A stretch of 36,801 bases of DNA from an uncultured Planctomycetales bacterium (GTDB lineage: Bacteria > Omnitrophota > Gorgyraeia > Gygaellales > Profunditerraquicolaceae): positions 85,702 through 122,502 of the forward strand of contig CAZAPM010000006.1 in NCBI GenBank assembly GCA_964487475.1, given 5' to 3'. The notes beneath the pieces were generated by a model that was not told the DNA's origin, made no database searches, and worked only from the letters and a program-made list of their open reading frames with translations. Shown here in pieces: positions 415-2,781 of the stretch. Positions within the stretch are counted from its first letter, which is position 1; the number at the start of each line of letters is the position of its first letter. The translations under genes were made by a program, and so were the position numbers.

Positions 415-1857
415 TTATCGCTTCGAGATCATATCTGATACGATGCGCGCGCTCGCCAGCACTACCGGCAGCCCGCCTCCCGGCTGCGTGCTCGCGCCGA
501 CATAATAAAGCCCCGGCATCCGCCTATCGGCGTTATACGGCCGGAAGAACGCGCTTTGCAGAAGATTGTGCGCCAGGCCAAAGGTAGCCCCGTACTTGAT
601 ATTATAGCGCTCCGTAAAATCCTTCGGGTAAAACGCGTGTTCAACCTCGACCAGGGGCCCGAGGTCTATCCCGGTGCGCTGCTTGACCACCTCGAACACC
701 TTGCGCTTCAGCTGTGCTTCTTTCCCCTCAAACGGCTCGCTGCCCGGCTCGCGGTTGTTGACGGGGATGAGCACGTACACCAGGTCCTTGTCCGGAGGCG
801 CCAGTGACGGATCGGTCACCGTAGGCACATGGATGTAGAAAGACGGGTCGGTCGGCACCTTGCGCTCGGTGAATATCTCCCGGAGGTTCTGCCTGACATC
901 GGAAGAGAAAAAAAGGTTGTGGTGCGCCAGGCCCGGGACCTTGCGGGAGAGCCCCAGGTAGAGCAGATACACCGAGCAGGAATACATGAATTTAGGCAGC
1001 CGCCGTCCCAGAAGCGTCTCCTGGGCATAGGAGTAATCGGCGTTGACCACGACCCGGTCTGCCCGGGCTTCCCCGCGCGGAGTGCGCAGCGTGAACGACC
1101 CGTTCTTATGGATACCCGAGACCTCGGATCCGTAATGGAACCGCACCCCTTTCCGGCGGCACATCTCCTCCAGCGTCTGAGGGATACGGTACATCCCCCC
1201 CATCGGGTGGCGGATCTTATCCACATGGTCGGTATAGGCGATGATGCTGTAAAACCCGGGCGCGCGAAAGGGGGAAACCCCCATGAACATGGCTTCAAAG
1301 GTGAAGGCGAAACGCAGCTTTTCGGATTTGAAGAAGCGGCTGGCCAGGGTCCAGTATGACGCGGGAAGGTTGAGCTTGGAGAGCAGCGGCCAGTACCTCG
1401 GGTTAAGGGGAGCGGAGGGAGAAAAACTCTCGAAGAGGTAAGGCTTGAGCGCGCGGTACATGGTCCCGGTAACGCGCAGGAACTCGTCAAACCCCCTGGC
1501 GCTTCCCGGCTCGATACGCTCCATCTCCCGCTTGGTGCGCTCGCAATCACGATGCACGGTGAACACGTCCCCGTCGGGATAGAAAATCCGGTAATTCTCG
1601 TCCAGCACTTTCAGGGGAAGCGTATCCCCGAGGTCCACTCCGCAGGAGCCAAACGCCTCCTCGAAATATTCGGGCATGAGGACGAAGGAGGGTCCGGTAT
1701 CGAAGAGGAACCCCTTATCCCGGATGATGTTGTTGCGTCCCCCGCAGTGCGGAAGCTTCTCGAAGACATCGACGGAATACCCCTGCGCGGAAAGCCTGGC
1801 GGCCGCGGAAAGGCCCCCCACCCCCGCACCCACTACGGCAATATTGGGACGTGCCAT
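415..1857 (-). CDS. Phytoene desaturase (CrtI/CrtN)-family FAD oxidoreductase
   Basis: N-terminal VVGAGVGGL Rossmann motif, FDTGPS, HPMGGM and C-terminal YYVGASTQPGGGLP; ATG at 1857 preceded by a GGAGGAGG RBS. Confidence 0.85.
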   Translation of the reverse strand: MARPNIAVVGAGVGGLSAAARLSAQGYSVDVFEKLPHCGGRNNIIRDKGFLFDTGPSFVLMPEYFEEAFGSCGVDLGDTLPLKVLDENYRIFYPDGDVFTVHRDCERTKREMERIEPGSARGFDEFLRVTGTMYRALKPYLFESFSPSAPLNPRYWPLLSKLNLPASYWTLASRFFKSEKLRFAFTFEAMFMGVSPFRAPGFYSIIAYTDHVDKIRHPMGGMYRIPQTLEEMCRRKGVRFHYGSEVSGIHKNGSFTLRTPRGEARADRVVVNADYSYAQETLLGRRLPKFMYSCSVYLLYLGLSRKVPGLAHHNLFFSSDVRQNLREIFTERKVPTDPSFYIHVPTVTDPSLAPPDKDLVYVLIPVNNREPGSEPFEGKEAQLKRKVFEVVKQRTGIDLGPLVEVEHAFYPKDFTERYNIKYGATFGLAHNLLQSAFFRPYNADRRMPGLYYVGASTQPGGGLPVVLASARIVSDMISKR

Positions 1858-1877: not shown

Positions 1878-1907
1878 AGGGCACCGCGCCTGATGGCACG
1901 GTGCCCT
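1878..1907 (-). terminator. 13-bp stem-loop after the small basic ORF (terminator-like or RNA-stabilising hairpin)
   Basis: Minus strand reads AGGGCACCGTGCC-ATCA-GGCGCGGTGCCCT with one G-U pair; the U-tract is weak (CACTATTT). Confidence 0.55.
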
Positions 1908-1926
1908 GTGATGACTTAACGCACTA

Positions 1927-2007
1927 TTACCCAAGATTGGGTTTTCTTCCCTTATTCGCTTTCTTGGTACGCCAGTTAAGCTTACCCCTGCGTTTGCGCT
2001 TTCCCAT
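1927..2007 (-). CDS. 26-aa highly basic protein MGKRKRRGKLNWRTKKANKGRKPNLG, similar to 50S ribosomal protein bL37 (absent from the ORF track)
   Basis: GAGAGG RBS 5 nt before ATG, tandem stops TAA TAG and a downstream hairpin; KANKGRKPN resembles the actinobacterial bL37 KANHGKRPN motif. Confidence 0.72.
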   Translation of the reverse strand: MGKRKRRGKLNWRTKKANKGRKPNLG

Positions 2008-2037
2008 TATATCCTCTCTTGTTGATACACTGCCGCG

Positions 2038-2781
2038 TTAATATTTATAATAATTGGCCGGCACGGTCTGCGAAATATAGCGCACCGCCTCGATGATGCA
2101 GATACGGATAGCTTTCTCCATGGGAGTGTTCGAATACGCCGACAAACCGCCCCCCAAACCAAACCCGCCCATAAAACCGGCCATGAACCCGCCGGCGATA
2201 TCCGATGCCTGCCCCTGGACCCGGGTCGCTGCCAGGACTTCGGAGGTCGAGGTATCCACGATGCGGATATCCAGCGCCATATGCGCCTTGTTCATGGTCG
2301 CCCCTAAAAGGCCTCCCAGGACGCCGTTGGCGATCCCGCCGCCTCCCCCGATCCCCGCCGATCCCCCCGAAGACTGGGGCTCGAACTCCGTCACCGCCGC
2401 GGTCACGATGATATCCGCGGTCTTGATCTGTCCCCGCTGCGCGCCGCTTCCCGCCTGCGCCGCGCCGGACGCCTGCAGTTCCTGCTCCTGCATCACGGCG
2501 TTGAGCGCCTGGCGCTCCAGTACGGAGAACCGGTTGCTCTGCAGCATGGAAGTCACCAGCATCTCGCGCAGCCCGGAACCGATCTCTCCGGTGGCTTTCG
2601 CCGCCTTCACTTCGAAATCCGCCACGGCAATGCGCACCTTGGGGCCGGAATAAGGAGGCAGGGGCGATGCCCCGGCGGTATTATCCACCTGGGCGGTCGG
2701 CTGCGTCATGGACGCGCACCCGGCCACAACCGCTGCTGCGGCGACCAAAGCGACCACTACGAAAATTCCGCGCACGCGCAT
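2038..2781 (-). CDS. CsgG/HfaB-family outer-membrane lipoprotein
   Basis: Lipobox VAGC; IAVADF, SNRFSVLERQAL..VMQEQ, AVTEFE and LDIRIVDTSTSEVL segments typical of the CsgG family. Confidence 0.8.
   Translation of the reverse strand: MRVRGIFVVVALVAAAAVVAGCASMTQPTAQVDNTAGASPLPPYSGPKVRIAVADFEVKAAKATGEIGSGLREMLVTSMLQSNRFSVLERQALNAVMQEQELQASGAAQAGSGAQRGQIKTADIIVTAAVTEFEPQSSGGSAGIGGGGGIANGVLGGLLGATMNKAHMALDIRIVDTSTSEVLAATRVQGQASDIAGGFMAGFMGGFGLGGGLSAYSNTPMEKAIRICIIEAVRYISQTVPANYYKY

Follow-up and report, generated by a model that had tools for sequence, protein, structure and literature searches.

A 26-codon gene in the genome of an uncultured bacterium of the Omnitrophota probably codes for a large-subunit ribosomal protein of the bL37 family, and this protein would belong to a subfamily found in part of the phylum. 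The gene lies in the window (the whole stretch of DNA that was analysed, 36,801 nucleotides long). It is a real protein-coding gene, present in single copy, under strong purifying selection and with its own ribosome-binding site. The features of the locus are as follows.

1927..2007, minus strand: the small gene, 26 codons, TAA stop included in the coordinates; a putative bL37-like basic micro-protein of an Omnitrophota subfamily (translation, relatives and profiles)
1924-1926, minus strand: second stop codon, TAG (sequence)
2013..2018, minus strand: Shine-Dalgarno sequence GAGAGG, with the ATG 5 nt further on (sequence, and enrichment of such motifs among homologues)
1984..2007, minus strand: codons 1-8, an N-terminal Arg/Lys run, the counterpart of the basic N-terminal helix of bL37 and presumably helical itself (alignment)
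1936..1962, minus strand: codons 16-24, the C-terminal motif KANKGRKPN (alignment)
1878..1907, minus strand: G+C-rich hairpin with a 13-pair stem, past both stops (folding)
2038..2781, minus strand: upstream neighbour, a CsgG-family gene (PF03783, family match)
415..1857, minus strand: downstream neighbour, a gene of the flavin amine-oxidoreductase family (PF01593, family match), which we take to be phytoene-desaturase-like; not conserved as a neighbour

A small gene under purifying selection

On the minus strand (2007-1924) the DNA reads GAGAGG-ATATA-ATG...GGG TAA TAG and gives 26 residues followed by a double stop. The reading frame, the Shine-Dalgarno sequence, the double stop and a hairpin 19 nt downstream are all present as the original prediction had described them, and its count of 12 Lys or Arg among the 26 residues (7 Lys and 5 Arg) is confirmed. 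There are no acidic residues. The G+C content of the small gene is 47%, while that of the whole genome is 59%. As a check on chance we collected the ATG-started ORFs of 20-35 aa with an SD-like 4-mer in the window's own genome (n = 869), and six of them had at least 40% Lys or Arg and no acidic residue. The motif [KR]AN[HK]GxxP occurred once in the six frames of this genome, in the ORF described here.

Two sigma-70-like sites are found nearby. The stronger one (2022-2051, plus strand, 11 of 12 consensus bases) is directed away from the small gene and runs antisense into the CsgG gene. The weaker one (2074-2047, minus strand, 9 of 12 consensus bases) could serve the small gene.

A search of related genomes for a conserved frame and Shine-Dalgarno sequence had been suggested, and both were found. 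Of 61 genomes searched, namely the window's own together with 60 from the same family and order, 58 had a match to the peptide, as did all 28 of those at least 90% complete. From 150 extracted loci we obtained 133 unique coding sequences, all of 26-29 aa, starting with ATG in 131 cases and GTG in two. SD-like motifs preceded 93 of these 133, as against a mean of 18 and a maximum of 30 in 200 shuffles. Identity to the window was 79% within the gene, 36% in the 20 bases upstream and 23% in the 30 bases downstream. Among the 91 closest ungapped genes pS was 0.73 and pN 0.058 (uncorrected), so that the proposed check for a conserved motif with synonymous-site variation gave about 0.73 against 0.06; for all 107 ungapped 26-aa genes the values were 0.75 and 0.10, and the entropy of the three codon positions was 0.35, 0.23 and 1.21. 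The residues most conserved were the non-basic W, A, N, G and P. It had also been claimed that gene callers overlook this gene. In an exact look-up none of 11 family peptides was present in a collection of 15 billion proteins, which fits gene callers skipping so short an ORF.

Relation to bL37

The family is very probably homologous to bL37, and it is likely to have a ribosomal function. Its relation to actinobacterial bL37 lies in sequence similarity at modest E-values, and it is seen through the relatives of the window peptide. The window peptide alone had no match in Pfam, NCBIfam or PDB at E ≤ 10, and neither NF047428 nor NF047429 found the small gene when run on the window's genome. Compared with KANHGKRPN, its motif is identical at 6 of 9 positions and differs by H>K, K>R and R>K. 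The window peptide scores worst partly because His at the fourth place of the motif is rare among the close members (5 of 93, with Lys in 88 of 93); His is found in 28 of 40 divergent members.

The relatives were represented by 48 aligned, unselected members, which also make up profile A1. When they were compared with NCBIfam (18,950 families) at E ≤ 10, 31 of the 48 matched NF047428 and 21 matched NF047429, and the sole other family was hit by one transposase match. None of the 48 matched any Pfam family at the same threshold. Scored singly, the best peptides reached 26.5 bits with NF047428 (E 5.2e-6) and 22.3 bits with NF047429. The curated cut-offs are 30 bits for NF047428 (ribo_Myco_bL37) and 40 bits for NF047429 (ribo_Plancto_bL37); no member scored reached them, and NF047428 was over its cut-off in none of 301 genomes of the phylum, which points to a separate subfamily. 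In the reciprocal search, NF047428 gave 15 matches at E ≤ 0.05 over the six frames of the 301 genomes, and 10 of them, including the best six, sat on the ORF of the family. Two other K/R-rich micro-proteins of the window's genome had no NCBIfam match at E ≤ 1; thus basic composition alone does not yield a bL37 match. The original prediction had called the gene a bL37 homolog and had named a profile match as its test. Homology holds through the relatives, while the peptide itself matches no profile and its relatives all stay under the curated cut-offs.

Structures gave a similar picture. Profile A1 was searched against 177,635 PDB sequences and had three matches at E ≤ 10, namely mL102 (E 0.24) and two bL37 chains (E 6.1 and 8.3, not significant). 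A peptide without Trp, from locus L160, matched five PDB sequences with a best E of 0.002; four are named bL37 and the fifth is a 22-residue 'peptide' with the same aligned sequence. This peptide and solved bL37 share KANHGKRPN exactly. Since it also finds genes of the main subtype (with E-values as low as 6e-4 per genome), it forms a link between bL37 and the main subtype. Profile A2, whose members were picked for bL37-likeness, reached E 6e-4 against PDB, a value that is partly circular for this reason. The divergent member in genome G201 was matched by no bL37 model. For the bL37 sequence of 7KGB chain v, one depositor name is '30S ribosomal protein THX', which is apparently a mislabel.

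Actinomycetotal bL37 (NF047428; PDB 5O60 chain 3, 7KGB chain v and 8CRX chain V) shares with the family a length of about 24-27 aa, a very basic N-terminal half and a C-terminal KAN[HK]G[KR][KR]PN. Compared with the 24-aa bL37, the family peptides are longer (26-29 aa) in the middle, where the segment G-K-L-x-W-R-S has no bL37 counterpart. They also differ in that the closest relatives have Lys for His, the main subtype has an invariant Trp, and the host is without a detected uL30. Planctomycete bL37 (NF047429, 32 positions) is non-actinobacterial and its motif region aligns with the family; its hosts are reported to belong to the same superphylum (PVC) as Omnitrophota. Unlike the family, this model starts with a short N-terminal part and continues for about 15 positions past the motif, and the best score was 22.3 against a cut-off of 40. 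In the Tetrahymena mitoribosome, residues 68-77 of mL102 (PDB 6Z1P chain AQ) match the C-terminal motif at E 0.24-0.28, which is not significant, and at 109 aa the protein is four times longer than the family peptides. It is described as extending between the L7/L12 stalk and the central protuberance as far as the A-site tRNA (PMC7326499).

Distribution, genomic context and rival explanations

The window peptide matched 116 of the 301 phylum genomes. With profile A1 at E ≤ 0.1, 125 genomes matched: the same 116 (E ≤ 7e-9) and nine weak ones. Among the weak matches, the one in G201 is a true divergent member with the same gene context as locus L031, and the other eight are partial. The subtype without Trp adds three genomes (loci L160, L171 and L172, at 1501-1578; families f28 and f39), for a total of 120 of 301. 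The distribution is patchy and mostly all-or-none per family, and no convincing match lay beyond the window's class among the matches listed. On 80 non-matching genomes profile A2 gave seven weak partial matches, none convincing, and it missed the true member in G201. More divergent members may therefore stay hidden, and absence from the non-matching genomes is not established. The best 80 of 362 confirmed loci had 88-96% identity; 60 were titled Omnitrophota or Omnitrophica, 17 Planctomycetales and three otherwise. Ca. Omnitrophota is the most likely lineage of the host. In a metagenome scan with profile A2 at least five of 597 stretches passed. Viral-contig candidates were rejected, as the one of seven stretches that passed held a chance match within a 339-aa ORF.

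Main-subtype sequences have an invariant Trp12 in a central GKLxWRS segment. In sequence, the subtype without Trp is nearer to actinobacterial bL37 than the main subtype is, and it might be an ancestral form or the product of transfer.

For the neighbourhood we scanned 115 neighbours, that is 113 of 135 predicted ones (the 22 omitted were mostly opposite-strand frames) and the two genes in the window. A CsgG gene stands upstream in 23 loci, and this is the usual arrangement in the closest relatives. Genes for tRNA were found at 7 of 60 loci scanned. None of the 115 neighbours is a ribosomal-protein gene.

The ORF is very short and is nested within a 121-codon frame of the opposite strand, as a chance ORF or a structured RNA might be. 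This explanation has next to no probability and is refuted by conservation in relatives and by the codon pattern: the variation is concentrated in third positions, start and stop codons are preserved, Shine-Dalgarno motifs are more frequent than in shuffled sequences, and identity in the flanks is no higher than background. It is also very unlikely that the ORF serves as a leader peptide regulating the downstream gene via the hairpin. In the window a strong hairpin does stand between the ORF and the next gene (starting 19 nt past the first stop; -29.5 kcal/mol, z -4.65, with none of 200 shuffles equally stable), and metal-transport genes (ZIP, FeoA/B, NikR) often lie downstream in relatives. 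However, the hairpin is not conserved. It has no U-run and is absent from the terminator scan list, and in the 60 nt past the stop only 8 of the 133 unique homologues fold to -20 kcal/mol or lower (median -9.4), so the strong hairpin of the original prediction exists in the window and is no trait of the family. The downstream gene varies (12 ZIP, 11 H+-pyrophosphatase, 7 ThiI/NFACT-R, and others), and synonymous sites are near saturation while residues are fixed. The gene thus persists while surrounding genes change, and a fixed peptide amid changing neighbours argues against a leader.

Two further explanations were considered. The peptide might be related to bL37, or resemble it by convergence, and yet act elsewhere than on the ribosome, as a general nucleic-acid-binding or antimicrobial basic peptide. 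The patchy spread (120 of 301) and the absence of a ribosomal-operon context would fit, and in a disk assay bL37 of C. acnes is reported to have inhibited the growth of Gram-positive bacteria (PMC10085706). We nevertheless consider this unlikely. The pN of 0.06, the single copy and the lack of any visible signal or leader part are more in keeping with a peptide that binds rRNA and lies buried, and a weapon or a charge buffer should tolerate shuffling of Lys and Arg, whereas the residues most conserved are W, A, N, G and P. Even less probable is another ribosomal micro-protein, such as the small-subunit bTHX or bS22/eL41, or a filler of another rRNA cavity. These are likewise tiny basic ribosomal peptides of similar size and charge, and the start of the family peptide presumably resembles Thermus THX. 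None of the 48 members matched the Pfam or NCBIfam models of bS22/eL41 or bTHX, though, Pfam giving no match for any of them at E ≤ 10 and the NCBIfam scan returning neither a THX nor a bS22 model; moreover, the window's genome has a separate 33-aa bS22-like ORF (PF08213, E 0.36). Unrelated peptides can fill the bL37 cleft, as is described for Coxiella CLaSP, whose sequence is unrelated to bL37 (PMC13392368), and the N-terminal extension of Borrelia uL30 is reported to fill the same cleft by 5S rRNA (PMC10618245). Neither of them was among the PDB matches of profile A1, the L160 peptide or profile A2. A bL37-family protein remains the preferred reading.

Proposed role on the ribosome and meaning

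Solved bL37 is described as an N-terminal helix and a C-terminal loop, buried among H39, H40, the H41-H42 joint, H72 and H89 of 23S rRNA, under the tip of 5S rRNA (PMC5876184, PMC10085706, PMC6101614). If the peptide occupies this pocket, its Arg/Lys run would neutralise the phosphate backbone, and its xANxGxxP loop would pack into the pocket and support H89 next to the peptidyl-transferase centre. A base is the probable stacking partner of Trp12 in the main subtype. In the tests that were made, M. smegmatis deleted for bL37 is reported to have shown no phenotype in growth, translation or antibiotic response (PMC10081302). The simplest reading would be that the protein braces H89 and the 5S junction without being essential, probably in an accessory, stabilising role.

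We found uL30 in none of the 301 phylum genomes, while 13 of 14 controls were positive. In the spc operon of the window's genome (L155:1468-2520, plus strand), the ORF immediately after uS5 carries a long Lys/Ala-rich N-terminal extension, and we take it to be uL15. A simple rule that bL37 replaces uL30 was rejected, as uL30 was found neither in genomes that carry the gene nor in the others. A peptide that persists without uL30 strains, and does not refute, the idea that bL37 split off from a long uL30 (PMC10618245).

A search for 5S rRNA was positive in 45 of 50 gene-carrying genomes and in 42 of 50 without a match (the latter set included G201, which does carry the gene and was not among the aligned ones), and it was negative in the window's own genome. 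Nearly all genomes have a 5S rRNA of 117-118 nt, whether or not they carry the gene. A shorter 5S tip where bL37 is present was also considered and rejected, the length being the same in the best-scoring 30 of each set. The closing pair of the tip loop (alignment columns 86 and 91; L203-L262) is C-G in 23 of 30 sequences with the gene and in 2 of 30 without, a comparison confounded by kinship, and we treat this association as a lead only.

Two further small ORFs were seen in the window's genome. One, on contig C14 (L263:1071-1172, plus strand), is a basic, bS22-like ORF of 33 aa with a strong Shine-Dalgarno sequence, and its PF08213 match (E 0.36) is under the cut-off. Judged by such resemblance, bL37 and bS22 may occur together in this genome, as in Actinobacteria. 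The other, on contig C6 beyond the window (L265:995-1078, minus strand), is a Lys-rich ORF of 27 aa with two Cys near its start and a strong Shine-Dalgarno sequence; it had no Pfam or NCBIfam match.

bL37 has been called specific to mycobacteria or Actinobacteria (PMC5876184, PMC10618245, PMC6101614). The original prediction placed it outside Actinobacteria, as an unrecognised ribosomal component of this lineage. The host lineage is indeed non-actinobacterial, but NCBIfam already holds the planctomycete model NF047429 (ribo_Plancto_bL37). The literature covered, mostly from non-subscription journals, contained no paper that names bL37 together with Omnitrophota or Planctomycetes. On ribosomal or small proteins of Omnitrophota, literature of the same kind gave nothing relevant beyond a bS22 preprint. 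The family is thus most likely a third bL37 subfamily, previously unannotated, and non-actinobacterial bL37 as such is only partly new. The gain is modest, since the mechanism is not new and a non-actinobacterial model already exists, and its practical consequence is a call for a third NCBIfam model.

A near-invariant version in a distant phylum points to strong selection on the bL37 pocket. The family offers natural variants (His or Lys, Trp present or absent), and sister families that have or lack the gene can be compared. As a tentative and rather doubtful extension, bL37 might be an old, widely scattered ribosomal plug of at least three bacterial branches (Actinomycetota, Planctomycetota and Omnitrophota), neither an actinobacterial speciality nor a fragment of uL30, which would have been hidden by the length limits of gene callers and kept in a phylum without uL30.
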